From a virus: 64,000 nucleotides of DNA. The stretch covers positions 61,331 to 125,330 of the IMG/VR virus record IMGVR_UViG_3300003154_000789; one strand, 5' to 3'. The notes under the pieces are model-generated. The model had not been told where the DNA came from. It was given only the letters and a program-made list of their open reading frames with translations, and did no database searches. Position numbers and translations under genes: made by a program. Shown piece after piece: positions 11,487 through 46,530 of the stretch (the stretch's first letter is position 1; every line of letters begins with the position of its first letter).

Positions 11487-11491
11487 AACCA

Positions 11492-20688: not shown

Positions 20689-22377
20689 TTATATCATAAT
20701 GGGTGATCCAATTCTGTTAGACCACACCAGTTTTCCGTCTTCACGATTCTTGTCTACAAATACTCGAATCGTATCTTCTATTACAGCGTTATCAACATCT
20801 ATTTCAAGATTAGGATCTTTACGCAAAATTTGACCGGTTACTTGAATCCATTCATCGAGGTCTTTGCATTCAGACACCTGGTTGAGTGTGACAATTTCAG
20901 ACAACGCAACATCCAATCGCCCCTCTTCGTTCATAATCACTTCGAGCGACGCTTCAATGTCTTCCCAACTTTGACCCTCACATCTTCGAAGGGCACAAGG
21001 ACGTTCGGCAAGTTTCTCCAGAACCTCATATGCCGGACCGATGTTTATCAATATGGATTTTAATTGCCGTACCAAATCAAGAGATTCCCCAATGAGAACA
21101 TCATAGTACTTGTGAAGTTCCCTGGTATCCGAAAATCTGTCACCATCTTGATAACCCTTCATATTGTTGAGAAGAGCACCTTTTATTTCCATGGTCTGTT
21201 CGAGCCACGCCTGATCTCCAATTTCGACAACGCCATAGCGGCTGATTTCGACGGCTTTGATTACAAGAGCATAATACATACAGGCAATTGCAGCAATAGC
21301 ACTTGGGCTCATAATTCCGTCAGCGGCTCTGAATTCAACGTGAAATCTTCGTATATCGCCGGAACTTGCGAACTCTATCTGATTATAGTTGATCCAGCCA
21401 TATTTATTGCCGCCAGAATTGGCAGAAACTTTTTCCTGTACTTCACGCATTTGATGCATGACTGCACTGACGGGAAGCACGCTCACTCTGAACTTTTCCC
21501 ACCGAGTCATCTGTTTTGGATTATCCAAACCCATCACCATCCAGGTCATAGCATTCTGATAACGCCTAACCAACTGATGAAGATTGGCAAGAATTATTTC
21601 TGGCATATCTCTTTCCATCTCATTGACTTTGTTGGGAATACCCATTTTCTCCTGACCTGGTACAACTTTTCCGTAATAACTCGCCAGAGCATGCATATGG
21701 GTACTACATCTTTCATTCAGATATGCTCCACGGTTACTTGCCAGAGTGATGATGTTCTTAGCCATCTTATAAAATTCCCAATAGTCCACACGTCTTCCAA
21801 CGGTGATGATCTCTGCACCCTTCTTACCAAGTAAAGAGCCATCAGTTGTGATGCTATGGACGCCGGTAGAACTCACCTGACCATAGGAATTATTCGGTTT
21901 CAGCTCGTTTTGCAACTGCAATCTGATGCTGTCAGGATTTTTATCCGGATCATATCTATATTTGCAGTTCTTACAGTCGGTCTGGAAATCACTGCATACA
22001 TAACAAAAGCTGATGAAATTGGGGCAATAGATGCCAGTACATTTTGGGGTAAAGAATTTGCAGGCTGCACAATCTGCATCCTCGCACGTATTTGTGGATT
22101 TTTCGCAGAATTCAACTGCACGAACGATGGCTTTACAACCACTTTTATTTATACACTGTTGCCAGCACGCATTGGCGGCAGACAAATTTATACAGGGACA
22201 AGTGCTACTGTCTCCTTTACAAGAACCATTCTTCTTTTCCGGAAGATTATATTCAAACTCCATCCCTATTTTCATAATCTTCTTAAGCGTGTTTTTCCAA
22301 TACGCAACGTCTTCTGCCGACAAGTCGGGCCTGGAAGGAAGGTTATAAAACGACCATTTGTGCTTGCTGTTTTTCAT
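20689..22377 (-). CDS. putative amidoligase (COOH-NH2 ligase fold) with Cys-rich insert
   Basis: IGMEFE, DGSL...AEI, CSTHMH, KY..IN, VEFR; 16 Cys inserted after the first Glu motif. Confidence 0.78.
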   Translation of the reverse strand: MKNSKHKWSFYNLPSRPDLSAEDVAYWKNTLKKIMKIGMEFEYNLPEKKNGSCKGDSSTCPCINLSAANACWQQCINKSGCKAIVRAVEFCEKSTNTCEDADCAACKFFTPKCTGIYCPNFISFCYVCSDFQTDCKNCKYRYDPDKNPDSIRLQLQNELKPNNSYGQVSSTGVHSITTDGSLLGKKGAEIITVGRRVDYWEFYKMAKNIITLASNRGAYLNERCSTHMHALASYYGKVVPGQEKMGIPNKVNEMERDMPEIILANLHQLVRRYQNAMTWMVMGLDNPKQMTRWEKFRVSVLPVSAVMHQMREVQEKVSANSGGNKYGWINYNQIEFASSGDIRRFHVEFRAADGIMSPSAIAAIACMYYALVIKAVEISRYGVVEIGDQAWLEQTMEIKGALLNNMKGYQDGDRFSDTRELHKYYDVLIGESLDLVRQLKSILINIGPAYEVLEKLAERPCALRRCEGQSWEDIEASLEVIMNEEGRLDVALSEIVTLNQVSECKDLDEWIQVTGQILRKDPNLEIDVDNAVIEDTIRVFVDKNREDGKLVWSNRIGSPIMI

Positions 22378-23530
22378 TGTAAAAATCTCCCCAGTTTTGT
22401 TCTATATTGTTTCCGAATTGAACATCTTTTTCAATGCATTCAAAATATGATTCGACGGCTTCAGCCCTCTGTGCGTAACCGACCATTTGTCGCACATCAC
22501 TTTTTATTGTTCGAAAATGATTTCTTGCTGCAGTTATATCAGGATTACATATAATCCCATAAAATGTATGGATATCAGGTAGATTTGGATATAGTGCTCT
22601 TAGATCCATCTCGGATAATATCCCATTTAAGTCCATGAAATTATCTGTGCATGTATTTATTCTGCTGGCTACATCTTCTGCAACAACAGCTCCGAGTGCT
22701 AATAGCCCTCTTGTAAGCAATGGATGCTTGAGATTGATTCCGCCTGGCATTCTGAATTCGAAAGTTCGATTATCCAAACGATATCCACCAGGTTTTCCAT
22801 ATTCCACAAATTTGGTGGTACGTCTAGCTATATCGGTATTTCCTTCTGGAATTATAGAGGGAACACCAACATAGTAATCAAAAGCAGTGGTCATAAGTTT
22901 TGCTACAGTGTTTACGTTGGGTCGCTGACCAAGAAGTCCTTTTGGCATGCCATAATGTAAATGGAATCCGGCGGTAAGTCCATTCCAAGAAGAACCAGCA
23001 ACCATAGCAATCCTATTTCCCTCGGAGAAGGCATTTAACATATGTCTAGCTTTCTTAACAAGATACCATAGGTTATTGCATACTTCTTCTGCGTACAGAC
23101 TAGGATTTGGTCTGAATTCTAAAAGCATCCCGTCATGCCCTACATCACCATATTTTTTCATAAATCTGTGGGCAGCTACCACATTCCCAGTCATCTTATC
23201 AATTATAAATAATTCAGGGTCGCACCCCAAAGTAATGTTTGTGACTCTTGAAACCTCACCAAGTGAGCGGTCCTTTATGCATAGCTCATGATCTACTTCC
23301 GTGGTAACATAAGCACAGTACTGGTCTCTGTTAACATCCTCTTTGAAAGCTTCTGCAATCTGAAACATTTTTAGACCGTTGGTCTTTGTTCGAAGGTATA
23401 GAAAATCTCCAATGTTTAAATTGTTCTTTTCTCGATAAGCCTGAGGAATTCTGACTATTCGATGCTCATACTTATCATTCCAGTCGGTTTCCTTATCCAT
23501 AGTGGGTGATATGTTTATATTTAATTCCAT
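22343..23530 (-). CDS. phiEco32-like COOH-NH2 ligase #2 with N-terminal accessory domain
   Basis: LGCDPELF, GHDG..LEFRP, AGFHLHYG, YGKPGGYR, FEFR; start MELNIN with RBS AAGGAG. Confidence 0.85.
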   Translation of the reverse strand: MELNINISPTMDKETDWNDKYEHRIVRIPQAYREKNNLNIGDFLYLRTKTNGLKMFQIAEAFKEDVNRDQYCAYVTTEVDHELCIKDRSLGEVSRVTNITLGCDPELFIIDKMTGNVVAAHRFMKKYGDVGHDGMLLEFRPNPSLYAEEVCNNLWYLVKKARHMLNAFSEGNRIAMVAGSSWNGLTAGFHLHYGMPKGLLGQRPNVNTVAKLMTTAFDYYVGVPSIIPEGNTDIARRTTKFVEYGKPGGYRLDNRTFEFRMPGGINLKHPLLTRGLLALGAVVAEDVASRINTCTDNFMDLNGILSEMDLRALYPNLPDIHTFYGIICNPDITAARNHFRTIKSDVRQMVGYAQRAEAVESYFECIEKDVQFGNNIEQNWGDFYNEKQQAQMVVL

Positions 23531-23543
23531 ATTTCTCCTTAAA

Positions 23544-24944
23544 TTAGTGTGCTTCGACAACTACTCCAAGTCTCATGTAGGTACGATATCTACAAGATTT
23601 ACTCTTGTTATAGTATTGATTTTTTACAACGCCGATATCTTCATCAACATAATCATATACTATAGCATCCTTTTTACCTGGAAAGGAACGCTGTATCCTT
23701 CCTATCAACTGCTCTGCCTTAGCCTCTGCTCTAAATGGCATGGATATGAATGCACGATCGAGAAATGGTACATCGAAACCTTCACCAAGTAAGGAAAAAG
23801 TAGCTATGAGAACAGTTATCCTGCCATCATTAAATGCTGCCACCTGTTCTTGAACATATTTTTTACTGTATTTTCCGGTTGCAATCCCTGTTTTTTCCCA
23901 TCCGATAGATATTTGTTTATAAAGCATTTCACAATGCTCTCGTCTGTCACTTATTACTATACAAAAATGACCAGCTTTAGCTTCATGAAGTACATCTTCC
24001 ACAATTATAGATGTCCGTTTAGGATTGTGCACAATGCATTTGTCAAGAATTGCTTGAATATCGTTTCCTTCCACAGCTTTGGAACGAATAGTCCTTTGCC
24101 ATACTACTGGCATTATAATTCCACCATATTTTTCCACATTTTTTATGGGAATAGTGGTTGTTGTTACACCAATTGTCTGAAACATCAGTTGTTCTAGATT
24201 GTCCCTCCTATATGGTGTAGCTGTGAGTCCGTACATATAGTAAGGATTTAAATGACAAAGAACATCTAAAAAAGTTCGGGCTGGACAATGGTGAGCTTCG
24301 TCTAAAACAACGAGTCCGAATGTCTCCCGTAGTTTTATCAACTCATCAGCATTTCGAACCAAAGTTTGTATCATCCCTATGGTAAGAACTTTACCGATAT
24401 TCCATTTTCCAGCCCCGATTGCTCCTATTTCTCCAATATCCGGTAAGAAAACTTTAGCCCTTTCTACCACCTGATCTGCAAGAGGTCCTGTGTGGGTAAG
24501 CCATAGAGTTGGCTGTCCTAATAATGGAATTATACTCAATCCCATGATTGTTTTCCCACTGCCAGCTGGAGCCACCAATACTCCTTCTGGAGCATCGGAT
24601 ATCATTTTTAGAACAGCATCAAATTGATATGGACGATACTTTATCATGGAGGAATCGATTTCGATATGATCAAATTTAGTACGTTTATCCGTCAATACAA
24701 AATCTATGCCAAATTCTTTTATTTTAAGCATTAGCCAGGATCTCAATCCTCTTGGTATTAGTAAACTATCATCCGGTAATACCATAAAGTTGACTATGAA
24801 AGGATCTACTCCCCACGTACTACGCCCAGAAGCTTGGGCTTCAGCATATTTAGGATTTGGTATACGAAGTTGTTCAACCAGAAGATGTTTTAGAATATCT
24901 GGTGGATTCTTAATCCTTATCCTGTTCTCGATAATTATCTCCAT
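23544..24944 (-). CDS. superfamily 2 DNA/RNA helicase
   Basis: APAGSGKT, DEAH, GLTATP, LGEGFDVP, QLIGRIQR. Confidence 0.92.
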   Translation of the reverse strand: MEIIIENRIRIKNPPDILKHLLVEQLRIPNPKYAEAQASGRSTWGVDPFIVNFMVLPDDSLLIPRGLRSWLMLKIKEFGIDFVLTDKRTKFDHIEIDSSMIKYRPYQFDAVLKMISDAPEGVLVAPAGSGKTIMGLSIIPLLGQPTLWLTHTGPLADQVVERAKVFLPDIGEIGAIGAGKWNIGKVLTIGMIQTLVRNADELIKLRETFGLVVLDEAHHCPARTFLDVLCHLNPYYMYGLTATPYRRDNLEQLMFQTIGVTTTTIPIKNVEKYGGIIMPVVWQRTIRSKAVEGNDIQAILDKCIVHNPKRTSIIVEDVLHEAKAGHFCIVISDRREHCEMLYKQISIGWEKTGIATGKYSKKYVQEQVAAFNDGRITVLIATFSLLGEGFDVPFLDRAFISMPFRAEAKAEQLIGRIQRSFPGKKDAIVYDYVDEDIGVVKNQYYNKSKSCRYRTYMRLGVVVEAH

Positions 24945-33344: not shown

Positions 33345-33794
33345 TCAAAATACCTCCTTGATGTGTAACTCACGCGAAATTGTGACAGCATTTGGGGTGT
33401 GCTTTGGAAGACAATTATATTCAGCGTAGACAGAATTGGTCATAATGTCTTTCAGAAGAGTACTCCAAGGCATCGCCATAAATTGATCGTTTGGTTTGGC
33501 TTGAAATGCTATCGCAGACTTCAATTTTGCGATGTATATGATGATGTTCTTATCTTCTATCCCCTTTGTTGGTGGATACCTTTTTATTTCGGCAAAATCA
33601 TCATTGTAGTTGAATGGATTTATTCCGAATAAGTTTAGAAGAATATCATTCACACAATCTAGAGGTGCTTCTGTAGCCTTGATGTAACGCTCAATGGTAA
33701 TGCACCACTGAGCGTTATTTGTCAGCTTATGAAGTAAGATTCGTTTATCCGGCAGCTGTACTGCCATATTCACACATCGCAAGCCGTTCATCAT
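33345..33794 (-). CDS. hypothetical protein (possible Nudix-like fold, no Nudix box)
   Basis: ILL.K...W.I.......EAPLDCV layout; catalytic REUxEE absent. Confidence 0.45.
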   Translation of the reverse strand: MMNGLRCVNMAVQLPDKRILLHKLTNNAQWCITIERYIKATEAPLDCVNDILLNLFGINPFNYNDDFAEIKRYPPTKGIEDKNIIIYIAKLKSAIAFQAKPNDQFMAMPWSTLLKDIMTNSVYAEYNCLPKHTPNAVTISRELHIKEVF

Positions 33795-34470
33795 TGTCTG
33801 TTCCCCTGGTATAAGCTGCAATGAATTCTTCCCATGGAAGTTCCAAAGCATCAATAATCATGTTTCTGTAATAATTAAAGCCTGCTGTGGTCTCAGCCAT
33901 AGCTTCAGGATGATATTGAACACCGAAAGCTTTTATTTTTGGGAAAATAACAGCTTCATTTTCTTTTCCGCGATAATCAACTTTCAGATCTGCATTGCCG
34001 ATGTACGATATCGAAAGGCTCTTTGCCGCCCAACCGATAACCTTTGCTCCTACGGGAGGAAGAATCATTTGATGATGATAACTGTTCACTATGAGTCTGT
34101 TACCAGCAGCCGTTTCCATAAGATGATCACGTCCAGCATGTCCGGTTACGTCATGCATCATACGTCCACCAGCCATAACGTTAAGGAACTGAACCCCTCT
34201 GCAGATGCCGGTCATCTTTATCCCATGTTCGAGGGCTTTCTCATAAATGGCAATTTCAAATTTATCTCTTTCCATAGAGTAGTGACAAATACCTTTTGGA
34301 CTTGTATCACCATAAAGCATCGGAGTAATATCTTCCCCACCAGTGAACAACACCAGTTTGAATTCACGTGGGTTTTCCAGAAATTCTCTTGATCTAACAG
34401 TCACATCCCCTAAACCTTCGACAGGACTTCTGTAACTGCTACCATTTAATACCAAAATCTTGTTGGGCAT
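33745..34470 (-). CDS. class I glutamine amidotransferase / peptidase C26 #1
   Basis: FTGGEDI, GICRG, NSYHHQ, GVQYHPE. Confidence 0.9.
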   Translation of the reverse strand: MPNKILVLNGSSYRSPVEGLGDVTVRSREFLENPREFKLVLFTGGEDITPMLYGDTSPKGICHYSMERDKFEIAIYEKALEHGIKMTGICRGVQFLNVMAGGRMMHDVTGHAGRDHLMETAAGNRLIVNSYHHQMILPPVGAKVIGWAAKSLSISYIGNADLKVDYRGKENEAVIFPKIKAFGVQYHPEAMAETTAGFNYYRNMIIDALELPWEEFIAAYTRGTDNDERLAMCEYGSTAAG

Positions 34471-34811: not shown

Positions 34812-35201
34812 TTATTTTGGCAAAGGCCAGCAGCCAGATTCAATCTTTTTTGCATGCTTTGGAACCTTGAAATTGAATACGTAGATATTTGCTTCCTTTA
34901 TTTCCCCGGCTTCGGTTTTGACTTGGACGCGTCTTCTCAAATACATACCATCCCTCAATTCGGGCTGATATCCTTCAATCATATCCATCGAGTGTGTAAC
35001 TTTCTCGGGATCTTTGTATTCATGAAGCTCACCCACAACTTTACCGGTTCCCGGTTTTATTCCAGGAAAAGAACCAAGATCAAATAGGTCGAATTTCTCG
35101 ACTTCAGCCTTTACGGAATTCAACCTGGCGGAATCAAATTGCTTTGCAAATCGTCCACCTACCTTAAGTGTACCATACACAAAGAACAAATCAGTTTTCA
35201 T
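34812..35201 (-). CDS. gamma-glutamylcyclotransferase (AIG2-like)
   Basis: FVYGTLK, FPG, V.GEL, D.IEG...Y.R. Confidence 0.92.
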   Translation of the reverse strand: MKTDLFFVYGTLKVGGRFAKQFDSARLNSVKAEVEKFDLFDLGSFPGIKPGTGKVVGELHEYKDPEKVTHSMDMIEGYQPELRDGMYLRRRVQVKTEAGEIKEANIYVFNFKVPKHAKKIESGCWPLPK

Positions 35202-35219: not shown

Positions 35220-36479
35220 TTAATATCGATATGCGGAACTCGATGTTGTTGAGATAGTATACATAGTGGTGCCCGTTGTGGTTCCCCAAGACGATGATAA
35301 ATTGCCCGCCGATCCATGTGTTGAGGTATCAACTGGAATAGCCATAGTTGCGTTACTGAAGGGATTTTCCAGCTTGGCTTCTAACTTTTTAAATGTTGGC
35401 TCAAAACGCTTGGGTTTGTTTCCTAAAGATTTTTTTTCATAATACTGTCGTAGTTTTCTTTCGATATCATGAGCCTGCCCGCTGTTGGCTGTTTCATAAT
35501 AGATATTACCAATTGGGGTCTGTTTTACTCTTAAATTTATACCTGATTTCGAAGCAAATAATTCAAGTAGACTAAGACATTCATTGATGTTTCCAGAAAA
35601 GAATGTTTCTATCTGATGTTTGGAGATCTCCTGCATATATCCGCCGGAAAATAAACTTTCCTTAGGGCCACCATGCATGAAATTATACTCTTTCAATTCT
35701 TCACTACGTGGAATGCCACTTTTTTTGTTTCTCAATTCTCTTAACCGTAGTTCTTTTTTCTTAGCCCTCTCCCTGGAGTCCTCAATTTCTTTTATCACTT
35801 TGTTTACGTTTATTGTGTTCTTCCAACCACGGGAAACCAATTTTTCAACGCGGGCTCCCAGAGCATCAAGGTATATAGTATCGGAACTTTTGTTTATACG
35901 AAGAACACCCTCCATACAATCCTGATATGCTCCTGGGACAGCTTCAAAGATACGCCCATCACAAAGCATTATCATGCCGCAACAGACAATGTCCACCATG
36001 CGTGCAACGTAGATAGCACTTTGCAAGGGGTCTCTGTCTTGATATTTGGATGTTATGAGTTGTACTACTTTTCCGCCCATAGTTACGAATGAGGAAATGG
36101 ATGACATCGGAGCAAACTTTTTAGCCATGTCACCAGAGTTTTTTATTTTCAATACTGGAGCTTTGGCTACCGGCTGTGCTACTTCATCTTCATCGTCTGA
36201 ATTTATGGAAAAGATTTCCATGGCGGAGGAATTAAATGGAATCCATTTTGGATTAGTCTGAAAAGCTTCAGAGATTTTATGGAAATCATCCTGAGGAACC
36301 GCAAAATCAAGATCGCCAACCAATTCCTTATTGGCTATGCAATCTCTAACGGCACCCCCATATATGATTGAATGCGGTGTCATAAATTCCAGAGCATTAT
36401 CAAACCGCTCCATGATGATTTCCTGTACCCATCCGACATCTTCTATCTCTTTCAAATATCCCGATATTTCAGGTTTCAT
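35220..36479 (-). CDS. second polymerase-beta-superfamily nucleotidyltransferase
   Basis: IYGGAVRD...DLDFAV motif A; divergent remainder. Confidence 0.65.
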   Translation of the reverse strand: MKPEISGYLKEIEDVGWVQEIIMERFDNALEFMTPHSIIYGGAVRDCIANKELVGDLDFAVPQDDFHKISEAFQTNPKWIPFNSSAMEIFSINSDDEDEVAQPVAKAPVLKIKNSGDMAKKFAPMSSISSFVTMGGKVVQLITSKYQDRDPLQSAIYVARMVDIVCCGMIMLCDGRIFEAVPGAYQDCMEGVLRINKSSDTIYLDALGARVEKLVSRGWKNTINVNKVIKEIEDSRERAKKKELRLRELRNKKSGIPRSEELKEYNFMHGGPKESLFSGGYMQEISKHQIETFFSGNINECLSLLELFASKSGINLRVKQTPIGNIYYETANSGQAHDIERKLRQYYEKKSLGNKPKRFEPTFKKLEAKLENPFSNATMAIPVDTSTHGSAGNLSSSWGTTTGTTMYTISTTSSSAYRY

Positions 36480-36712
36480 GCTATCGTTTTCTCCTGTATC
36501 TCAATGCATTTTATAGAGACAGTACTTGTGTCTGAAACAGCGTCTTCGAAAGCCATAGCTAACAACCAAGGGGTTATAGGCATCGACTTGATGTACGTTA
36601 TCGTAGAATCTCTTTCCTTCATTCTACGAAAATGTCGCACAATGTGCCGAAGCCTATAAACCACTTCAAGTATCGTGTCGTCCTCATATGTTATTTTTAC
36701 ATTAAATGCCAT
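36476..36712 (-). CDS. hypothetical protein
   Basis: Likely start MAFNVK at 36712. Confidence 0.5.
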   Translation of the reverse strand: MAFNVKITYEDDTILEVVYRLRHIVRHFRRMKERDSTITYIKSMPITPWLLAMAFEDAVSDTSTVSIKCIEIQEKTIA

Positions 36713-36720
36713 TACTTCTC

Positions 36721-37503
36721 CTACACAGCTTCGAAATGTTGTTGAAGCCCTGTTTCCTGATTGAGAAAGAAATTGCGAAGAAGATTGATATCTCGCAATT
36801 CTTCTGGATGCCACTGAACAGCAAGAATGGGACTGCCCCATTTCAATATTCGGAAGGCTTCACAAACAACTTCGGTACTTACTTTGTTTTTAGCCAATTT
36901 CAATCCACGCTGCGTCCATGCAGCCATACGGAAAGCTCTAGCTCCGAGAACATTCTTTTGCTTAAAATCGGCAACCAAGCATTGATGGTGCATACTGTTT
37001 ACCGGCATATGATGTGGCAGAGCCGAATCAGGTTTGATACCATACAGCGTATTTGGGGCATACTCAACATAATGTTGACAAATGTTTCTGGATAGTTGTT
37101 GATTATCAACCTGATTGTGCTCGCTGATGTGTTCACAGAAATATAGGAATTCATCCATCTTGTTGTCGGCAAGCATGTATTCTCTTGCAATCAACTGAAA
37201 ACCGCGGCAGATGCCAAATATTGGGAGGCCACGTTCTCTGGACATATGAAAAAGATTTCGTTCGAATGTATCTTTTTCCGGGTCAACGGCAAAAGATGAA
37301 CTGTTGTCTTCTCCGTAATAAATGGGATCCAAATCAATTCCTCCTGGAAGTACCAAACCTTCGATCATGCCGAGTACCATTTCGGTTGGCATTTCAGGTG
37401 TGATAAGAATTGGAGTCAGCCCAGCTTCTGCTACGTATTGGACATAAGCTTGGTTGATGAAGTATTGTGTCTTGCTTGAGGATGCTACTATTCCGATTTT
37501 CAT
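36721..37503 (-). CDS. class I glutamine amidotransferase / peptidase C26 #2
   Basis: LPGGIDLDP, GICRGFQ, VNSMHHQ, AVQWHPE. Confidence 0.9.
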   Translation of the reverse strand: MKIGIVASSSKTQYFINQAYVQYVAEAGLTPILITPEMPTEMVLGMIEGLVLPGGIDLDPIYYGEDNSSSFAVDPEKDTFERNLFHMSRERGLPIFGICRGFQLIAREYMLADNKMDEFLYFCEHISEHNQVDNQQLSRNICQHYVEYAPNTLYGIKPDSALPHHMPVNSMHHQCLVADFKQKNVLGARAFRMAAWTQRGLKLAKNKVSTEVVCEAFRILKWGSPILAVQWHPEELRDINLLRNFFLNQETGLQQHFEAV

Positions 37504-38420
37504 GCAGCCTTCTCCTTTCCGTAGAGATTCCATTCAGCATGGAAGTTCATATCATTGGCTTTCACTTTTGCCAATGCTTCGTTGAAATAAAATATGGAGT
37601 CATTGCTCAGTCGCGGAATCAACGAGACCTCAATCATTTTCATGGCGACTGCAGCATCACCATTGGAAATGGTATTCCGCACCTGATTCTCATCCATTTC
37701 TTCAATGAGTTCATCTGCCTTGCCATTACGAACAATGGACAGGGCATCCTGAGTTAAGGAATACATCATCATCACTGTGATCGGGCTTTTGAGCCAGTAG
37801 TTGGAAAGCACCCGGTATTCTACACCATATTCTTTGGGTCGGTGGGCACCAGGTTTGCCATAAAGCTGCCGCCGATCAATGGCTTCTTTGTTGGAGTCAA
37901 GTACCGAAGAGATGATGCCATGAATACAGTCCATAATCTTCACCATCTGCAGCTTTCCCTCAAAGTCGAGCAAGAAGACATTTTCATCTTTTCCGTCGGT
38001 TCCCACATGGATATGAGCCCCGCAAGAGCGGAAAGTGTTGTCCACTGCACAAGGTTTGTCATTTTCTTTTACTTCCCAGGCATCGAAATCCGGGTTACAG
38101 CCAAATGCTTGTGCTTCAGGATGGGTAAGCTGATCAGGATCGAAGCTTGCAGAAGGTGCCGCCACTATTTCGGTATCGCTGGGCAAGGTCTTGATGGCTT
38201 CCGTTAGTGTGTTTCGAATGTTACTTACAAAACTTTCCACACTGTCTGCAGGATCTGTGGCTATTTCCATCGCCACGTTATCTCTCTGGATATTTCCACC
38301 GAGTGGAAGCCTGAAAGGCATGTCTTTTGTTCCGGTAATGAATGGGATTGCAGAAATCAACTTTCCACTTTTACGCTCTTTCAAAAAGAATTCGGGATCA
38401 CACCCAATAGTCATTGTCAT
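37500..38420 (-). CDS. phiEco32-like COOH-NH2 ligase #3
   Basis: IGCDPEFF, DNVAMEI, GCNPDF, GAHIHVG, RRQLYGKPG..R.KEYGVEYRVLSNYW. Confidence 0.92.
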   Translation of the reverse strand: MTMTIGCDPEFFLKERKSGKLISAIPFITGTKDMPFRLPLGGNIQRDNVAMEIATDPADSVESFVSNIRNTLTEAIKTLPSDTEIVAAPSASFDPDQLTHPEAQAFGCNPDFDAWEVKENDKPCAVDNTFRSCGAHIHVGTDGKDENVFLLDFEGKLQMVKIMDCIHGIISSVLDSNKEAIDRRQLYGKPGAHRPKEYGVEYRVLSNYWLKSPITVMMMYSLTQDALSIVRNGKADELIEEMDENQVRNTISNGDAAVAMKMIEVSLIPRLSNDSIFYFNEALAKVKANDMNFHAEWNLYGKEKAA

Positions 38421-38422
38421 TC

Positions 38423-39247
38423 TTACTTTCCTCCTTTAATGAGTTCATTTTTTCGCGGGAGATATTTCCCACACAGTTCACGGAACCTTTTTTGAGCCGA
38501 AGCAACATAATTGGTATAGTCTACGGTTTCATCCACAAATGAAAGCATTCCGCCATTAATGTGAACGTATTCGTGTTTTCCAGGCTCGGGCCAGGCAGTT
38601 TTGATATCGACATTTTTGAAAATTTCCTGATAATATTTCAGAATGATGTACATTTTATCCCAGAAACTCTGTAGATATGAAAGATTATCAGTAGTTACAC
38701 CATCATTACTTCTGCGTACCTTTTCCTTGATGTTATACAAACTGGCTTCCAGAGCATCATAACTGTCAGTGTTTAGTGGACCACTGATAGCAGCTAATCT
38801 CAAAATCCATGTAGCCAGGGAAAGCAGTTGTGGTTGTGATAACCATTCAGCCGGACCAGTAAGCAGCCATGCATTATCATAACATGGGTGTTTTACTGTG
38901 GTAATACTGCTCGGTTCCCAATTGTTGATCTTTTCCAAAATATTTAGAGCGGCTTTTCCACTGAATAGCTTACGACGGAAGTCCGCAAAATCTGCGGGGT
39001 CGTGGATAATCAAAAGTCTCAATTTTGAAAAATCAAAAGGAGGTAGGGAATCGTTTTGGTCATAATCATTTGCTGCATGCCAGACCTTCTTCAGAGCATT
39101 TTCTCGGCAGGTCATAGTACTGGTTAGCTGGGTCCTACCTGTTGCCGGGCTTGAAATGTAGGCAAAGTTGATAGACCCCATTCTGTAATGTACCTTTTCC
39201 GAACCAGGCAAGCCTTTGACTTGAATTAACTGCTTTTTTGCTGTCAT
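38423..39247 (-). CDS. CR[DE]-family unknown protein, paralog 1
   Basis: TCRE, KLRLLI, NILE, W..QPQLLSL..WILRL, GGMLSF. Confidence 0.7.
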   Translation of the reverse strand: MTAKKQLIQVKGLPGSEKVHYRMGSINFAYISSPATGRTQLTSTMTCRENALKKVWHAANDYDQNDSLPPFDFSKLRLLIIHDPADFADFRRKLFSGKAALNILEKINNWEPSSITTVKHPCYDNAWLLTGPAEWLSQPQLLSLATWILRLAAISGPLNTDSYDALEASLYNIKEKVRRSNDGVTTDNLSYLQSFWDKMYIILKYYQEIFKNVDIKTAWPEPGKHEYVHINGGMLSFVDETVDYTNYVASAQKRFRELCGKYLPRKNELIKGGK

Positions 39248-40044
39248 TATTTTGTAAGCTCCATTATGCGGTTATTGAGATCACTATCTGGTGTTTGACA
39301 TGAAGACAGACTCCATATTCCTCCACCGTTGTGAAAACTGTTGATGTTGTATGGACCATGAAATATGTCATGTACTCCAGCTTTTTTAGGAAAAAGTTTT
39401 GTTCTGTTCTTAATGATAAGATGCATTTTATCCCAACTTTTTCCAAGATAATTTGCATCGTTGTCTTGTATCTTCCCTCCTTTATGTTCATCGTTCAAGC
39501 CCTTGAACTTTTGTACCAATTCGTCGCCATCTTTGAACACAATCTCTTTGTCTCCAAGACGGATCAAGAAGGTATACATAGAAATCAAGAACGGAGATGT
39601 CATCCACATTTGTGGACCAACAAATGAGTAGACTGCTTTCTTATTGGAGCCTTTTGGGTCTACCTCCTCCAACTTTGACAAGGATACTTTTGCATGCGAT
39701 TCGAAATGATTTACCAGAGCAAGCCCGGCTTCCATCTTTTTCTTGAAACCAGCAACATTATCTTCTTTGAGACCATCCTTCGATATAAGCATTCTCATCT
39801 TTTTCAAATCAATGTTTGGGTTCGTAGAGGAATTAAAGGTAAACCCATAGATAGCACAAGGTGTATTTGTGATCTGGGCACGCACAGCATCATGGAGAAA
39901 ATCTCTGCATTTGACCCATTCGTGACACACTTTGGATCCTTTCTCTGGAGATGATACAAATGCAAAGAGCATTCCTGTTTGCTGATAAATTTCGTTTAAA
40001 CTTTTTGGGGCTTTAAACCACTCTACGGTAGTCTGTTTAGGCAT
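39247..40044 (-). CDS. CR[DE]-family unknown protein, paralog 2
   Basis: KCRD, KMRMLI, NHFE, W..SPFLISMY..LIRL, GGIWSL. Confidence 0.7.
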   Translation of the reverse strand: MPKQTTVEWFKAPKSLNEIYQQTGMLFAFVSSPEKGSKVCHEWVKCRDFLHDAVRAQITNTPCAIYGFTFNSSTNPNIDLKKMRMLISKDGLKEDNVAGFKKKMEAGLALVNHFESHAKVSLSKLEEVDPKGSNKKAVYSFVGPQMWMTSPFLISMYTFLIRLGDKEIVFKDGDELVQKFKGLNDEHKGGKIQDNDANYLGKSWDKMHLIIKNRTKLFPKKAGVHDIFHGPYNINSFHNGGGIWSLSSCQTPDSDLNNRIMELTK

Positions 40045-40059
40045 TAACGTTGTTTCCTC

Positions 40060-40572
40060 CTATAAATGTTTATTTGTATCGGTAATAAGAATACCTTTGT
40101 TGTGATCAATTTCATGTTGAATTGTGCTACCACCCTCTGCTATGGTGAAGCGTGTTTGAACGTGCTTTCCCTCGATATTGTAATAGGATACTTCAACCCA
40201 CTCTCGACGTGTAACTGAAACTTTTTCAGTAAGACATAACGAGCCACAATTCGATTGCACTATACGAGTTTGTTTGGACATTCTAACTATGGTTGGGTTG
40301 AGCATATGAGTCACGATATCATTCTTTAATATAGTGATTATGTTGAAAGGAATTCCTACATTGGCTCCAGACAGACCGGAAAGTTTTGGATAGTCTTCAT
40401 ACTTTTGAACAAATACCCACTCCATATACTCACAGATGTTCAGGATTACTGCTCGATATTCCTTATTACCCGTGAACAATCTTATGTTTATGTTGAACAA
40501 TGGGCGACGAAGGCAGTCGTTTTCGCTTTCCGAGTTTTGGACTAGATTGCTTTTTATCTTTATTTGGTCCAT
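40060..40572 (-). CDS. divergent peptide deformylase-like protein
   Basis: GLSGANVG, NCGSL (in place of EGCLS), QHEIDH. Confidence 0.7.
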   Translation of the reverse strand: MDQIKIKSNLVQNSESENDCLRRPLFNINIRLFTGNKEYRAVILNICEYMEWVFVQKYEDYPKLSGLSGANVGIPFNIITILKNDIVTHMLNPTIVRMSKQTRIVQSNCGSLCLTEKVSVTRREWVEVSYYNIEGKHVQTRFTIAEGGSTIQHEIDHNKGILITDTNKHL

Positions 40573-41290
40573 TGATTTTTGCCTTTGCAGTATTGGGTTT
40601 TGTCATTTCTTGCGTGCATACATTCTTTTCATTTACACTGCTATTTTCATAAGCATGACGAAACGAATTGAATTTTTTAACTGCTTGGTGTACTTTATTT
40701 GGAAACTCTTTACCACAAGTGCCATTATAGTTCTGAAGAGCCTTTGTTATATTTCCTTCGTTCTGATCAATATAATATTTCAGTATTCCAATTCCAAGAT
40801 TGAGGTTTACCTTTATTCTATATAGATCCTTTCTTTGTTTTATGCCTAGCTTAGATCCCCACACTTTATATCTTATTTGCATAAGACCATGAGAGTCTTT
40901 GCTACTTTTGGCAAATTTATTATAAGAAGACTCGACATCAATCAATCCGGCAATTAATGAGAATGCTATCCCATGTTTAAGGCATTGTTTGCTTATTTCA
41001 GTAGCTATGATATCAATATCTCTTTCCAAGACTTTTGGAAATTGAGTTGTTATATAATCCCGTAAATCTTCTGTGTCTTTAGCTTCTTTTGTTGGTGGGT
41101 TTATGGGCTTATTTATACTTACAACTATTTCCTTTTCGATCACTGAGGTTTTTTCCATTATTTTAGCCATGTTGGCTTCGTAATTTTTACTCAAAACATA
41201 AAAGCACCACATGTTGCTTAAAATAATTAATGCAAGTATCACATTGATATTGTTGGAAACCCTTGATAAACTTTCGTAATGATCCTCCAT
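40466..41290 (-). CDS. lytic transglycosylase (SLT-like) with N-terminal membrane anchor
   Basis: LIDVES, GLMQI, N...G..IL, AL..YNG. Confidence 0.85.
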   Translation of the reverse strand: MEDHYESLSRVSNNINVILALIILSNMWCFYVLSKNYEANMAKIMEKTSVIEKEIVVSINKPINPPTKEAKDTEDLRDYITTQFPKVLERDIDIIATEISKQCLKHGIAFSLIAGLIDVESSYNKFAKSSKDSHGLMQIRYKVWGSKLGIKQRKDLYRIKVNLNLGIGILKYYIDQNEGNITKALQNYNGTCGKEFPNKVHQAVKKFNSFRHAYENSSVNEKNVCTQEMTKPNTAKAKINGPNKDKKQSSPKLGKRKRLPSSPIVQHKHKIVHG

Positions 41291-41323
41291 TGTTTGTTTT
41301 CTCTCTTTTTTAGTTGAAAATTT

Positions 41324-41689
41324 TTACCGGTTGTAGTAGCAATTAAAATGCCTGCAATATTGCCTGTCCTTTGGCCACTTGAATTCCGGTATCATTTGAC
41401 ATGTTAAAGTGCCATAATATCTAAGAGTTATGAATTCCTTAAATACTGGGCTTATAATGTTATTGGTGAAAATCCTATGGGTGAAGACCTTAAAGCCGCA
41501 ACCTTCAAAGAATTTAAGATCCCTATCTATATATGTCCTCTTATTTGGATCAAACAAGCTGTTATTTGTCCAGTGCTTGGTAAGAAGAAGTGTTGGTGGT
41601 TTTATTTTGATATAACAATTTTCACAAAATCTTTTTCTGCCTTGCAATATTGCATAGGGTATGACAAAACCACAAGAATCACAAACCAT
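41324..41689 (-). CDS. hypothetical Zn-finger protein
   Basis: CDSC...CENC. Confidence 0.5.
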   Translation of the reverse strand: MVCDSCGFVIPYAILQGRKRFCENCYIKIKPPTLLLTKHWTNNSLFDPNKRTYIDRDLKFFEGCGFKVFTHRIFTNNIISPVFKEFITLRYYGTLTCQMIPEFKWPKDRQYCRHFNCYYNR

Positions 41690-41794
41690 AATATCTCCAT
41701 TTCAACAAGATTATTGTTATGATTATATTGAACCATTCAATAATAATTTAAATGCTAAAACTACTATTGAATGGTATGTTGGCAGGGTGAGATG

Positions 41795-42340
41795 TTACTT
41801 TATTTTTAATCCGGTAACGGGTGTCACAGCAGGAATTGTTTCAAACGTGGCTTTTATCGTGTGGCTTGTACTAACATTTGTAAATGCATAAGTTGTTACT
41901 TTTCCTACAGATATTCCATCTACTGCAACATCTTTTATTTGATTTCCAGCATTTGGAGTAATGGTAAACGTAAGAGGTGTTACCGAACTGACCACTTTAG
42001 TCATTGCCGGAGTAATAGTACCAGAACCAACAACGGATGGAATTAAGGTCCAACAAGGCAGCTCGATAGAAAAATCGCTCTCCAAATTATCTGTCCCATC
42101 GACTGCAGTCACGGCAAAAAATACATTTTTGCCTTCAGCAATACCGGTAAGAGTGAATTGTGTTACTTTTCCAGTGTCCACACCCGGTCCATACACTCTA
42201 GAAGCTGTACCATAATACAACTTATAACTGGTAACTCTTGGGTCTGTATTTGCATCCCACGCAAGAGTAACCTCCGCAGCATGAATAGATGAGATGCTCA
42301 TCAAAAATAATACAGTAATCGCTAATAATTTTCTGATCAT
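41795..42340 (-). CDS. secreted fibronectin type III plus beta-repeat protein
   Basis: Signal peptide; VTLAWD...YKLYYG...FAVTA (FN3); V.VDG..VG...Y.F.NV...HTI.ATF repeat. Confidence 0.8.
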   Translation of the reverse strand: MIRKLLAITVLFLMSISSIHAAEVTLAWDANTDPRVTSYKLYYGTASRVYGPGVDTGKVTQFTLTGIAEGKNVFFAVTAVDGTDNLESDFSIELPCWTLIPSVVGSGTITPAMTKVVSSVTPLTFTITPNAGNQIKDVAVDGISVGKVTTYAFTNVSTSHTIKATFETIPAVTPVTGLKIK

Positions 42341-42364
42341 ATATTTTCTTTATTTATCTCCTTT

Positions 42365-43204
42365 TCATTTTGGAATTTCTGCCGCTACTTTTTTCCAGTT
42401 GGCTCTAAGATCATTATCACCATAACCATCGATTAGGTATTTAATACCACTAGAGCCGGAATTTGCTCTGAAGTTTTCTTCAAGGCTTTTATTAAAGAAT
42501 AAAACATTGTGATTGTTGAGAATAGGCATCCAATACTTCCAGGTTTGTTTCAGCCATGAAATATCGGTCACATTTGATTCACTTTTGGTTTTTAATACTG
42601 CTTTGGTTACTGTCTCAAGATCTTCAGTTTTCTTAAACTTCGAGAAATCTCTCCAGAAACGACCCAGTCTTACGATGAGTAGATACAATGAAAGAAGCTG
42701 TGGTGCTTGCATCCATTTGACAGAGCCTACAAAAACGAATACGTTAAAACAATTCTTATGTAAGTTCGCATCTTCACACATAGAAACACGTGTCAAAGCC
42801 CAGCCCTGGGTTTTTTCGAAGATATTTAACAGACGAGCTGCACATCTCATCCATTTTAGATCATCTTTAGTATTCTCTTCAAACAGACTCTTACTGTGCT
42901 TACGAACGACAGCTATTCTTGTCTTTTTGAAATCCAATTGTCTTTCATACACCCATCTTGGTGGTTTTGTGGTGCTAACGAATTTGCATATTTCTCCAGC
43001 AAAAGTTTCCCTGCAGCCATGCCAATTTGTTACCTGAGAAAACATTCCTTTTTCGGGACCAGGAGCCATCCATGAGAATTTCACTCCAGTATTTTCATAT
43101 ATGGTGTTTATCGGGCTAAGTTTACCAGACCAATCTATTTTTACTTTTTTCATACTGTAAAATCTCCAGATATCATAAATTTTATGTAGCATATTAAATT
43201 CCAA
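42365..43204 (-). CDS. CR[DE]-family unknown protein, paralog 3
   Basis: GCRE, KTRIAV, NIFE, W..APQLLSLY..IVRL, SGIKYL. Confidence 0.7.
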   Translation of the reverse strand: MEFNMLHKIYDIWRFYSMKKVKIDWSGKLSPINTIYENTGVKFSWMAPGPEKGMFSQVTNWHGCRETFAGEICKFVSTTKPPRWVYERQLDFKKTRIAVVRKHSKSLFEENTKDDLKWMRCAARLLNIFEKTQGWALTRVSMCEDANLHKNCFNVFVFVGSVKWMQAPQLLSLYLLIVRLGRFWRDFSKFKKTEDLETVTKAVLKTKSESNVTDISWLKQTWKYWMPILNNHNVLFFNKSLEENFRANSGSSGIKYLIDGYGDNDLRANWKKVAAEIPK

Positions 43205-43640
43205 AAATTTTCAATCCACTATAACCATTCTTGCCCCCATCACCCAACGGTCTTATATCGTAATCATGTTCTATGAACCATTCAGTACAATGGGGAAGTT
43301 TGGTTTGGATAAGCACATGCTTCTTTCCTAAGCTTCTTGCCCATTTTGGAGCATCCTCTATTACCCACCCCAGAAACAAATGAAGAGATTGTTCACTTAA
43401 TGGAGAAACTCCTCTAGTTCTTAGGGTCAAATCTTCAAGCATCAAGCATTTAAGCATCCGTGTAACTAAGCAACGAAAAATGGAACTGGGGTAGCAATCC
43501 AATTGGCTGTTACGATAAACAATGACATGTTCCATCTTATCTGTTTCTCTTTCAAAGTCTATAAATGGATTCACTTGAAGATTTAGTTGTCCTGTTTGTT
43601 TAATCACCTCTTCTTCATCTATTGTCATTTGTGAAAACAT
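43194..43640 (-). CDS. hypothetical protein
   Basis: 148-aa ORF. Confidence 0.6.
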   Translation of the reverse strand: MFSQMTIDEEEVIKQTGQLNLQVNPFIDFERETDKMEHVIVYRNSQLDCYPSSIFRCLVTRMLKCLMLEDLTLRTRGVSPLSEQSLHLFLGWVIEDAPKWARSLGKKHVLIQTKLPHCTEWFIEHDYDIRPLGDGGKNGYSGLKIFGI

Positions 43641-43655
43641 ATCAATTACCTCGCA

Positions 43656-43862
43656 TTACATCTTTGTTACTTGCAGCTTGAAAGATGTACCGTCCGACAT
43701 TTCGACAAGCACGCAATTTCCTTCTATACTTGTCAATACAGGAAATACTCTTTCGAACAGATCATTGTTAAAAGGCAGTTGAAAAAGCTCTTCATGTAAG
43801 GAATTGATAACATTTTGTCGTGTTAACTCCACATTTATCTCTTGCTGTACTACACGTGCCAT
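43656..43862 (-). CDS. hypothetical protein
   Basis: ORF in gene run. Confidence 0.55.
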   Translation of the reverse strand: MARVVQQEINVELTRQNVINSLHEELFQLPFNNDLFERVFPVLTSIEGNCVLVEMSDGTSFKLQVTKM

Positions 43863-43866
43863 GATT

Positions 43867-44373
43867 TTATCTCCTTGACGCCCAGTGCGTCTCTAAGCAG
43901 TTAATGATATACTCCTTATCTACATTTGGAGCATACTCTTCTCTAATCATTTTTGCAATCCAATCAAAATCTTTTGGTGATTTAGCCATCAGTATGTAAG
44001 CTTCAGCTTCAACATCAGCTAAATATTTTTGTGAGAAAAGAGATGCCCAACAACTAAACGAAAGAGTGCGATAATATCTTTTTACATGGATAAGTTCGTG
44101 TTGGATTATTTCTTCATCATCGAATTGTGAAGGGGATATAAATATAAACACCCCTCGTTGCATGGCTGCAGAACCACCTGTAAGGATGCTTGAATTTGAG
44201 CCAATAAAAACAGGTAAAATGTTATAAACATGCCTTACTTCCATTCTCGAAGATAGCATAGTGATCATGGAAAAAACAAACGGTAGAATCAGGATAGCCA
44301 GAATAAATCTGTATCTTATTCCTATAATCTTCATACTGTTTCCTTTATATCCTATCAGAATTGAGTAGTTCAA
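43867..44373 (-). CDS. membrane-anchored putative zinc metallopeptidase
   Basis: N-terminal TM segment; HELIH (HExxH) and downstream EAEAY. Confidence 0.55.
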   Translation of the reverse strand: MNYSILIGYKGNSMKIIGIRYRFILAILILPFVFSMITMLSSRMEVRHVYNILPVFIGSNSSILTGGSAAMQRGVFIFISPSQFDDEEIIQHELIHVKRYYRTLSFSCWASLFSQKYLADVEAEAYILMAKSPKDFDWIAKMIREEYAPNVDKEYIINCLETHWASRR

Positions 44374-44596
44374 ATCTGTTTACCTCATTTAGTACAACGG
44401 GTTTTATCACCATACGTCCAACATCTTCTTTTCTTGAATCTTCGAAAACTTTTTCGATAACCCCTGAAAGATTGAGAGCAGTCATGCTTGTACCGATATA
44501 CTTTCCACCTTTAACGATGTACTCGACGTTAAATTTTGTCGGTTGTTGATTTCCAGGAATGCCAAGCTTGTTTACCAGCCATGTAGCACAGTCCAA
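44345..44596 (-). CDS. hypothetical protein
   Basis: ORF in gene run. Confidence 0.5.
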   Translation of the reverse strand: MDCATWLVNKLGIPGNQQPTKFNVEYIVKGGKYIGTSMTALNLSGVIEKVFEDSRKEDVGRMVIKPVVLNEVNRFELLNSDRI

Positions 44597-44693
44597 TTTA
44601 AAATCCTCCTTATGAAGAAATGCTCACCCATGCAAATAGAACCCCTAGCCAGGATATGGATCATGGTTCTATACGCAATGGGTGAACAAGGCA

Positions 44694-45005
44694 CTACTTC
44701 TTTTTCTTCTGTTTCTGCTGACCGACACGTGCTTTCTTCGCGTCTTTCGTAGCCAGATCAGGTCGATAATGTTCCCCAAGAGGACATCGAAAATCTGGTC
44801 GCCACCAATTTGAAGGATTGACATATGCTGTACAACGACAGGCAGCGTCTGTGAAAGACTTACCTCCTTCAATATCAATCGGCTCGATGCGTTTGCAACG
44901 CTCGGATACAATAAATTTTTGCTCAATTTCGGAAAAGCCTTCGCCACGACACTTTGGATGTACTGGCAATCGCTCTTTCATAAGTTGTTCCGTAATTTTG
45001 TCCAT
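44694..45005 (-). CDS. hypothetical Cys-containing basic protein
   Basis: ORF with RBS AGGAG. Confidence 0.6.
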   Translation of the reverse strand: MDKITEQLMKERLPVHPKCRGEGFSEIEQKFIVSERCKRIEPIDIEGGKSFTDAACRCTAYVNPSNWWRPDFRCPLGEHYRPDLATKDAKKARVGQQKQKKKK

Positions 45006-45025
45006 GAATACTCCTTTATGATAAA

Positions 45026-45214
45026 TTAATCTGGTTGTAAGATATATCTTGGTTTAAGAACAAACATCTCAATTTTACCTGCTCCCCAGGGTTTGAAATA
45101 TTCTATCGCTGCGTCAATGGCATCACTGAGTCTGTGCTTATTGAGCTGCTGATTATGAATTTGATTAGGAAGATGAGCTTCCAATCCAAATCCATCTATA
45201 TAAACATTGGTCAT
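45026..45214 (-). CDS. hypothetical protein
   Basis: ORF in gene run. Confidence 0.5.
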   Translation of the reverse strand: MTNVYIDGFGLEAHLPNQIHNQQLNKHRLSDAIDAAIEYFKPWGAGKIEMFVLKPRYILQPD

Positions 45215-45405
45215 ATTGACTTACTCTCCTTATATTCAATGTTGATGCTCTTCACAAGACCCTTTTTGCATTGGATTATATAGTCTATCACCTTTGACAG
45301 TTGCCTGTTTCCAGGAAATTCATCTCTGTACATGACATATCCTCTACAAAACTCATTTGCCATTGTTGTTTCGGTTACTATAGTTTGTTGCGATATCATG
45401 ATCAA
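45211..45405 (-). CDS. hypothetical protein
   Basis: ORF in gene run. Confidence 0.5.
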   Translation of the reverse strand: MIMISQQTIVTETTMANEFCRGYVMYRDEFPGNRQLSKVIDYIIQCKKGLVKSINIEYKESKSI

Positions 45406-45662
45406 TGAAGCACCTCAGTTATTATTTTCTTTAAAACATCTCCAAACAACATGATCAGACTGAAAAAGATGCCTAACAAGAAACCCCCAACAAGCCTCAA
45501 CGCGAGATCTGCACTACGACTTTCTTTTTTATCCGAAAGTTTCTTTTCCAGATAATTATAGGCGGCATCTATACCCATGAGTCTATTGGTATGAAATGAT
45601 TTTTCAATCTTCTCTGACCAACCAGCTGTAATCTCTGATAATCCTTCTACTTGTTTTTCCAT
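45402..45662 (-). CDS. hypothetical membrane protein
   Basis: C-terminal hydrophobic helix. Confidence 0.55.
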   Translation of the reverse strand: MEKQVEGLSEITAGWSEKIEKSFHTNRLMGIDAAYNYLEKKLSDKKESRSADLALRLVGGFLLGIFFSLIMLFGDVLKKIITEVLH

Positions 45663-45726
45663 TCAAATCTCCTTCTTCCATCGCAAAGCGGGCCAGAGAG
45701 CTCCAGAAACCAGAAAACCAAAACAA

Positions 45727-46530
45727 TTATTGTTTCTGCCATTTCTCCCATGCTTTTCTCATAAGATCATCAATGTCTTTAACATCAGTTTCGTACCGAC
45801 ACAGACTGACTATTCCTCCGCAACTGTGCCAACTTGTTACTTTTCGAAGAGGATACCAGAAAGCATTCGTTTTTGAACCAAACAAATCATCATAATATTC
45901 CATCAACATACGAAATCTTTCCCATGAGTTTGTCAGGTAATGACCACAGTCATTGTATCTCCCACTATTCTTTTCACACAATTCCTTGAATCTTTGTTCG
46001 ACTTCCTTTACGTTTCTAAGCTGCTCAAAGCCGCCTGATTCAACAACGATCCTGAAAATCAAGGTAATCATAGACACGAGGTGAGATGATTTTAGCCATT
46101 CAGGAGGGCTTATTACTACCCAGCAGAACTTTATATTCGGGTTTGAATGCTCTACACGTTTAATGACACTTCTCTTCTTAAAACCAGCGATGTTCTCATA
46201 CATGTTTATAATGTTTTTGGCCGCCCGAAGTTTCCTGTGAAGATCTTCCCTTGTTTCACCCATCGAAAGATCTTTTGCAATGAGAAGTCTAAGGCGAGCT
46301 GTATCAACCGGTACCATGCCTTTTTTCCAGTGACTTGATCCAACATTTCCAGCTGTCACATTGAAAAAGGAGATAAGGCAATCGTTAATGTAATCACGGC
46401 AGGTATCAAAGCAAAGAATCTGCTTACGTCCATCTTTTAGAGAGGAGAGAAGGGAAAATGATATTCTAGAGCCAATACCGTAGCAAGCCTTGCCATTTCC
46501 ACCAACCTTGATTACGTTAGTATTCTTCAT
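45727..46530 (-). CDS. CR[DE]-family unknown protein, paralog 4
   Basis: TCRD, RLRLLI, NMYE, W..SSHLVSM..LIFRI, GGIVSL. Confidence 0.7.
   Translation of the reverse strand: MKNTNVIKVGGNGKACYGIGSRISFSLLSSLKDGRKQILCFDTCRDYINDCLISFFNVTAGNVGSSHWKKGMVPVDTARLRLLIAKDLSMGETREDLHRKLRAAKNIINMYENIAGFKKRSVIKRVEHSNPNIKFCWVVISPPEWLKSSHLVSMITLIFRIVVESGGFEQLRNVKEVEQRFKELCEKNSGRYNDCGHYLTNSWERFRMLMEYYDDLFGSKTNAFWYPLRKVTSWHSCGGIVSLCRYETDVKDIDDLMRKAWEKWQKQ

Follow-up and report, generated by a model that had tools for sequence, protein, structure and literature searches.

A phage protein family with a predicted ligase-like fold and its own conserved Cys-Arg-acid site, encoded beside COOH-NH2 ligases

Which role do four related proteins of about 270 aa play beside the phiEco32-type COOH-NH2 ligases of a phage? 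The question is raised by a 64,000-nucleotide stretch of the IMG/VR virus record IMGVR_UViG_3300003154_000789 (positions 61,331 to 125,330; hereafter, the window), where the first-pass annotation, made from the sequence, had listed four dispersed paralogs, named here P0001 to P0004, and had suggested that they are possibly accessory enzymes or carrier or substrate proteins of the amidoligase system. We found that they belong to a large, phage-restricted family without a database name. Its members have, according to structure prediction, the ligase fold without the ligase residues, carry a near-invariant Cys-Arg-acid site of their own, and occur in two to five copies per genome. The fold superfamily and the phage amidoligase cassette are known already; what is new is a database-unnamed component of more than 1,400 clusters at 50% identity that is locked to one ligase subfamily.

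Family membership and distribution

The four genes (Table 1) are on the minus strand, as is every gene in this region, and their open reading frames (ORFs) translate without stops. Aligned over their full length, the proteins share 21–28% pairwise identity, and BLASTP yielded E values of 4e-22 for P0001 versus P0004 and 7e-17 for P0002 versus P0003, so the similarity of the four is far beyond chance and they are true paralogs at the coordinates where they were first called. Every motif listed for them in the first-pass annotation was present in all four proteins, namely F-[AS], G, C-R-[DE], [KR]-x-R-[LMI], N-x-x-E, W-x-x-x-[PS]-x-L-[LIV]-S-[LM]...R-[LI], and [GS]-G-[IM]. The whole IMG/VR record (141.5 kb, ~54% complete) contains exactly four family copies and three PF14395 ligases. 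The maximal ORF of P0003 starts from TTG and extends into the upstream gene; its true start is probably the ATG at 43153, because the alignment with relatives begins at Met18.

A profile built from the four proteins and searched against 1.84 billion cluster representatives gave 1,432 matches at E ≤ 1e-3 and 245 at E ≤ 1e-30. These matches are clusters at 50% identity, and all of them are metagenomic or phage. Most members are 250–300 aa long, while some proteins of 525–560 aa contain two copies of the domain. A word-indexed search returned only unnamed or "hypothetical" metagenome proteins, encoded on contigs of up to 313 kb. Pfam contained no match at E ≤ 10 for the four window proteins and none at E ≤ 0.1 for 98 aligned members, the four window proteins had no match in PHROG or NCBIfam, and sequence searches of the PDB with profiles of 4 and of 98 family sequences found nothing. 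The DNA thymidine hypermodification enzyme aGPT-Pplase was ruled out as a relative, given the lack of any Pfam match and a different fold.

No member was detectable in 50,697 records of cultured phages, either by megablast or by tblastn of a member, and a peptide-pattern search of IMG/VR revealed no loci for P0001 and three for the ligase. Among prokaryotes, represented by one genome per species, only five family loci were found, all on contigs of metagenome-assembled genomes labeled as Parcubacteria, Patescibacteria, Woesearchaeota, Stahlbacteria, and Arcobacteraceae. These loci are probably mis-binned phage DNA; alternatively, they could be hints to the hosts.

Linkage to the ligase gene

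As the first-pass annotation had noted, two of the paralogs, P0002 and P0001, are directly upstream of COOH-NH2 ligase #3 (P0007). The start of P0001 lies on the stop of P0002 with an overlap of 1 nt, and the end of P0001 is separated from the start of the ligase gene by a 2-nt gap. To examine this linkage, 83 loci were fetched via the ligase alone (42–83% identity), and their six-frame ORFs were searched with a hidden Markov model (HMM) of the family. Upstream sequence of 1.8 kb or more was available in 44 loci, and every one of them had a member encoded on the ligase strand no more than 2.1 kb ahead of the ligase gene. A directly adjacent member (gap below 150 bp) was present in 41 of these 44 loci, which span 45–83% ligase identity, and a tandem pair in 28. 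Where only 0.9–1.8 kb of upstream sequence was available, 14 of 15 loci had an adjacent member. Most of the long loci carry two to four members.

The succession of family member(s), PF14395 ligase, and Peptidase_C26 glutamine amidotransferase (GATase) was also found in five independent long contigs. The gene order in all long contigs with distant members is a member pair, or one fused protein of 543 aa, followed by the PF14395 ligase, Peptidase_C26 GATase, GGACT, a second C26 GATase, and a fused RNA polymerase; genes for SLT transglycosylase and/or peptide deformylase are often located upstream. Thus, the link to the amidoligase system proposed from the window alone is strongly supported by the gene order in the 44 informative loci and the five long contigs, and the co-occurrence with the ligase is near absolute. 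Conservation is far higher in the ligase than in the family: on the same contigs, ligases are 53–93% identical to the window protein and family members 20–73%.

One distant phage (L006, positions 11405–12208) encodes a very diverged extra member (267 aa; E 1e-13 with the family HMM) downstream of the ligase and GATase genes, in the slot that is occupied by a nucleotidyltransferase-like gene in the window.

Predicted fold and loss of ligase residues

The AlphaFold2 model of P0001, obtained with the 98-row alignment, had a predicted local distance difference test score (pLDDT) of 95 and a predicted template modelling score (pTM) of 0.92. It comprises four main antiparallel strands and a helical C-terminal half, with Cys47 at the N-terminus of helix 1, beside an Arg (family residues are numbered as in P0001). 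Foldseek searches of the PDB with this model revealed nothing (best E 0.03, TM score 0.16), and searches of the ESM Atlas by shape and by features yielded only noise (TM < 0.4, scores < 0.8). Exhaustive alignment of the model to 48,161 PDB representatives showed that ranks 1–16 are all occupied by carboxylate-amine ligases of the glutamine synthetase (GS) fold, and that all 19 representatives of this fold are within the top 29 ranks. They include PafA (4bjr_A; score 7.2, 188 residues, 4.3 Å), Dop (9cku_G; 6.5, 192, 4.5 Å), GshF (3ln7_B; 6.2, 187, 4.6 Å), a YbdK-like protein (1tt4_A; 5.7, 173, 4.7 Å), E. coli GS (8pvg_A; 5.6, 164, 5.4 Å), and GshA (3nzt_A; 5.4, 186, 4.4 Å). With PafA/Dop (Pup ligase and depupylase), YbdK/GCS2, GshA/GshF, and GS, 155–195 residues align at a root-mean-square deviation of 4.3–5.5 Å and 4–10% identity. 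These enzymes are 350–730 aa long and retain metal and ATP residues, whereas the family has no recognisable ATP-binding signature.

The adjacent PF14395 ligase is similar in size (~300 versus ~270 aa), and its model matches the same GS-fold PDB chains as the family model. Both have a hairpin, a four-residue Trp helix, a two-residue linker, and a long Pro-initiated helix, this Trp/Pro element being AEWL-SQ-P in family proteins versus NYWL-KS-P in the ligase. It is the sole segment aligned by hhalign between the family and ligase profiles (14–15 columns), at a probability of only ~4%, with no significant sequence or profile match, so we infer homology to the ligase from structure and context and not from sequence. 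The two models differ in their strands, four main ones in the family versus about ten short ones in the ligase. In BFVD, the model matched the uncharacterised phage protein A0A6J5LH58 (E 3.5e-5, TM 0.49/0.57); weaker matches to proteins of cassette-bearing phages (tf I2FLN9, PaP4, CW02) are leads only. As modelled, the family fold is a strongly diverged GS-like amidoligase fold of the superfamily to which the adjacent ligase belongs. The first-pass statement that no family could be assigned holds at the sequence level, where Pfam, PHROG, NCBIfam, and the PDB gave no match, but not at the level of the fold.

The alignment of the ligases showed the invariants D8-x-E10, D47/N48/E52, H136-x-H138, R183/R184, H193/R194, and E201-x-R203, which we take to be the metal, ATP, and substrate residues expected from GS, GCS2, and PafA. 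Equivalences between the family and the ligase were derived from the order of secondary structure elements and aligner ranges rather than from direct superposition. Placing family W135/P139 in register with ligase W209/P213 makes family positions 127 and 129 the counterparts of E201 and R203, and these are W/Y/F and F/L/I/V, respectively, in 112 of 112 family domains. Strand 1 of the family reads F-[AS]-[FLW]-[VCL]-[ST], with D or E at positions 26–32 in only 0–2 of the 112 members, and the family model contains no strand equivalent to the H-x-H strand at ligase positions 130–140. D8-x-E10, E52, H136-x-H138, R183/R184, and E201-x-R203 of the PF14395 ligase have no conserved counterpart in the family, while C-R-[DE], E105, and R150 are invariants of the family's own. 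Since the Mg- and ATP-binding residues of the ligase are lost, by this register, the family members are predicted not to be canonical ligases.

Conserved site

C47, E105, R150, and G233 are invariant in the 98-sequence alignment, and Y21, F28, R48, D72, R77, W135, S143, and D187 are conserved at 90% or more, at a mean column identity of 28%. A second set consisted of 112 unique full-length domains from loci that were fetched via the ligase and not via the family. Among these 112, C47 was conserved in 111, R48 in 109, D/E49 in 112, N102 in 97, E105 in 106, W135 in 112, S143 in 107, R150 in 109 (with K in the other 3), D187 in 100, and G233 in 112. The C-R-[DE] motif is therefore as constant as had been claimed from four sequences, and it belongs to a more extensive signature.

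No invariant or near-invariant His was found among the 98 members. This distinguishes the family from Cys-His(-Asp/Glu) hydrolases and from transglutaminase-like and class-I GATase-like enzymes, which need an invariant His partner of the Cys. The alignment of subfamily A (see below) contains an additional conserved C40-H41 ahead of the invariant C46, an invariant H238, and frequently a Cys about ten residues after H238 ("FHN..GI.SLC"), these His residues being conserved only within subfamily A. The extra Cys and His residues may form a metal site without a counterpart in the other subfamilies.

Subfamilies and pairing

A tree of 143 family domains showed an A clade (64 rows, support 100) that unites P0002 with the "distal" genes elsewhere and with every N-terminal half of the 18 fused proteins; P0002 is orthologous to these halves. 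The B/D clade (57 rows, support 97) contains P0001 (subfamily B, "proximal") and P0004 (subfamily D) in separate sub-clades, D being the sister group of B. P0003 falls into the C group, as do the three additional copies at locus L001 and 15 of the 18 C-terminal halves of fused proteins. Judged by this placement in separate clades, the four window genes represent separate lineages of old origin rather than recent duplications. In every fused protein an A half precedes a B or C half, an arrangement that speaks for joint action of an A-type with a B/C-type subunit.

Complex prediction for P0002, P0001, and the ligase, with the ligase as the scored partner, yielded an ipSAE of 0.38 (0.24, 0.39, and 0.38 in individual runs), with at least 42% of contacts agreeing between runs and a partner pLDDT of at least 86. 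All three controls, including one with P0001 replaced, scored 0.00. In the calibration of this approach, 58 of 80 solved complexes passed the mark, as did 2 of 110 mismatches, and scores of 0.60 or lower came from only 7 of the 80 solved complexes and from both passing mismatches. The predicted complex thus falls into the weak class of support and is a hint only.

Possible function

The analysis established that the four proteins belong to one family, which residues are conserved, the class of fold, the loss of the ligase residues (by register), the linkage of the genes, and the existence of fused forms; we infer a physical complex, a non-ligase role, and a use of the Cys site. The probability that the family members are degenerate ligase-fold subunits, in which A is paired with B or C and which work with the ligase-GATase unit, binding or handling the substrate via a newly gained Cys/Arg/Glu site of their own, is estimated at about 0.5. 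According to this scenario, the family, which comprises four or more old subfamilies (A, B, C, and D), would derive from, or at least have the fold of, GS-like carboxylate-amine ligases. A-type members would pair with B- or C-type members, encoded either by adjacent, translationally coupled genes or as one fused chain, and the pair would be an accessory subunit of the downstream ligase-glutamine amidotransferase unit. It could bind, present, or transiently carry the substrate through Cys47-Arg48-[Asp/Glu]49, Glu105, Arg150, and Asp187, the ATP-dependent activation would be performed by the true ligase, and the GATase would supply or remove the amide nitrogen. If the family sets the choice of substrate or performs a second chemical step, it would offer a handle for finding the product of the cassette. 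It would also be a clear viral example of how a pseudo-enzyme or neo-enzyme evolves next to the enzyme from which it arose.

The alternative that differs from this scenario mainly in making the conserved site catalytic is that each member is an enzyme in its own right, its new active site placed on the old ligase scaffold, with Cys47 as a nucleophile acting in the same pathway. Cys47 could form a thioester with the gamma-glutamyl-type amide made by the ligase, or cleave or transfer it, and the paralogs would differ in substrate. The first-pass annotation had proposed a catalytic Cys/Arg/acid set, and the conservation is as it claimed: C47, R48, D/E49, E105, and R150 are each retained in at least 106 of the 112 domains at a mean identity of ~28%. 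The location of the Cys in the P0001 model also agrees with a catalytic role, since the N-terminus of a helix next to an Arg is a setting that lowers the thiol pKa, and the whole neighbourhood is devoted to amide-bond chemistry (ligases, C26 hydrolase-type GATases, and GGACT). However, an invariant His is missing, no Cys-dependent hydrolase or transferase family or fold was matched, and the obligatory A:B pairing or fusion and the strict adjacency to the ligase would fit a subunit as well; we regard autonomous catalysis as a serious but rather unlikely possibility. Distinctly less probable is a new kind of enzyme on the GS fold, not a dead ligase, in which the A:B pair would accept the acyl-phosphate or gamma-glutamyl intermediate of the ligase, bind it as a thioester through the invariant Cys, and pass it to different acceptors chosen by the fast-evolving paralogs. 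If true, large phages would possess a two-step, E1/E2-like amide-tagging system directed at host or phage targets.

The occurrence of multiple fast-evolving copies per genome beside a very conserved ligase might suggest that the members are themselves protein substrates or carriers modified by the ligase, for example, on the invariant Glu or Cys, by analogy with the targets or carriers of peptide tagging. Carriers and tags are usually small and have one conserved attachment site, whereas these are 270-aa globular proteins with a confidently predicted enzyme-like fold and about ten near-invariant polar residues along the chain, and the fused A-B forms point to a structural pair. Of the two roles offered in the first-pass annotation, accessory enzymes and carrier or substrate proteins, the latter is accordingly the weaker, and we consider it improbable. 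Finally, the likeness to the ligase fold could be coincidental and the proteins could have no part in amide chemistry, being, for instance, host-takeover or anti-defence proteins encoded in the early/middle operon of the ligase. The ranks of the 19 GS-fold representatives, 16 of them at the very top of the list, and the adjacency to one ligase subfamily in every informative locus, over a broad range of ligase identity, make this explanation very improbable, and we give it the least credence of all.

Amidoligase cassette of the window

The window encodes the full phage amidoligase enzyme set, comprising an ATP-grasp protein, three PF14395 ligases, Ntn-type and class-I GATases, and GGACT (Table 1).

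Table 1. Family members and neighbouring genes of the amidoligase system in the window
Feature	Position	Strand	Remarks
Family member P0001, subfamily B ("proximal")	38423–39247	minus	274 aa
Family member P0002, subfamily A ("distal")	39247–40044	minus	265 aa
Family member P0003, subfamily C	42365–43204	minus	279 aa counted from TTG
Family member P0004, subfamily D	45727–46530	minus	267 aa
phiEco32-type COOH-NH2 ligase #3, P0007	37500–38420	minus	306 aa, PF14395; true GS-fold amidoligase
Class-I glutamine amidotransferase / gamma-glutamyl hydrolase-like (Peptidase_C26)	36721–37533	minus	E 2e-29; always after ligase
Small ORF directly after GATase	36476–36709	minus	~78 aa; within ORF 36476–36841; no Pfam match
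Nucleotidyltransferase-like gene between C26 GATase and GGACT	35220–36479	minus	419 aa
GGACT / AIG2-like gamma-glutamyl cyclotransferase	34812–35201	minus	E 3e-18; synteny
Second Peptidase_C26 / GATase	33745–34470	minus	E 2e-22; synteny
RimK-like ATP-grasp	14542–15648
Ligase #1	15673–16968
Two Ntn-type GATases	16980–19049, 19887–20675
562-aa gene	20689–22377		no Pfam match
Ligase #2	22343–23560

The phage amidoligase cassette was recognised by comparative genomics in 2009 and is present in hundreds of cultured phages. The whole enzyme set of the phiEco32 / LUZ24-PaP3-tf cassette is common to the window. This cassette was termed a "peptidoglycan modification cassette" by inference only (PMC5498523, Duhaime et al. 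2017, with reference to Iyer et al. 2009, Mol Biosyst, and Hardies et al. 2013; PMC2938197 also cites Iyer et al.).

The Pseudomonas phages tf, PaP3, UFV-P2, SCYZ1, and Rembedalsseter encode two hypothetical proteins (282–326 aa) directly upstream of the ligase, at the same position as the family pair; these are tf_17/tf_18 of phage tf (L093:3184–4997), orf50/orf49 of PaP3 (L095:1042–2972), and the corresponding genes of L098, L099, and L100. This podophage pair is fast-evolving. Homology to the family could not be demonstrated: suggestive motif overlaps seen by hhalign with single sequences disappeared with five-sequence profiles (probability below 1%). The Cys of tf_18 concerned is not conserved among the relatives of tf_18. 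A database search with tf_18 found only itself, and Foldseek against BFVD gave a weak match of the family to a 307-aa protein of phage tf. We therefore treat the Pseudomonas phage proteins as positional analogues only. Zobellviridae-type cassettes are without such an upstream pair.

The 419-aa gene downstream of the C26 GATase contains a Pol-beta nucleotidyltransferase signature ("IIYGGAVRD...GDLDFAV") resembling the heads of CCA-adding enzymes and poly(A) polymerases, although the match to the Pfam PolyA_pol head (E 0.039) was below the threshold. It has a Ser/Thr-rich C-terminal tail, and a gene of 346–422 aa is located at the same position in related phages. It was ruled out as a fifth family member. 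The small ORF that directly follows the GATase gene could start at an internal Met ("MAFNVKITYED..."), and loci L001 and L003 have genes of 74–77 aa at the same place; its product may be a small protein that partners the module or is targeted by it. The related phage contig L001 (4315–5382, 8762–9976) also carries a TnpB-like gene (OrfB_IS605 / Cas12f-like) among small early genes and a T4 Rnl1-type RNA ligase gene directly upstream of the family pair.

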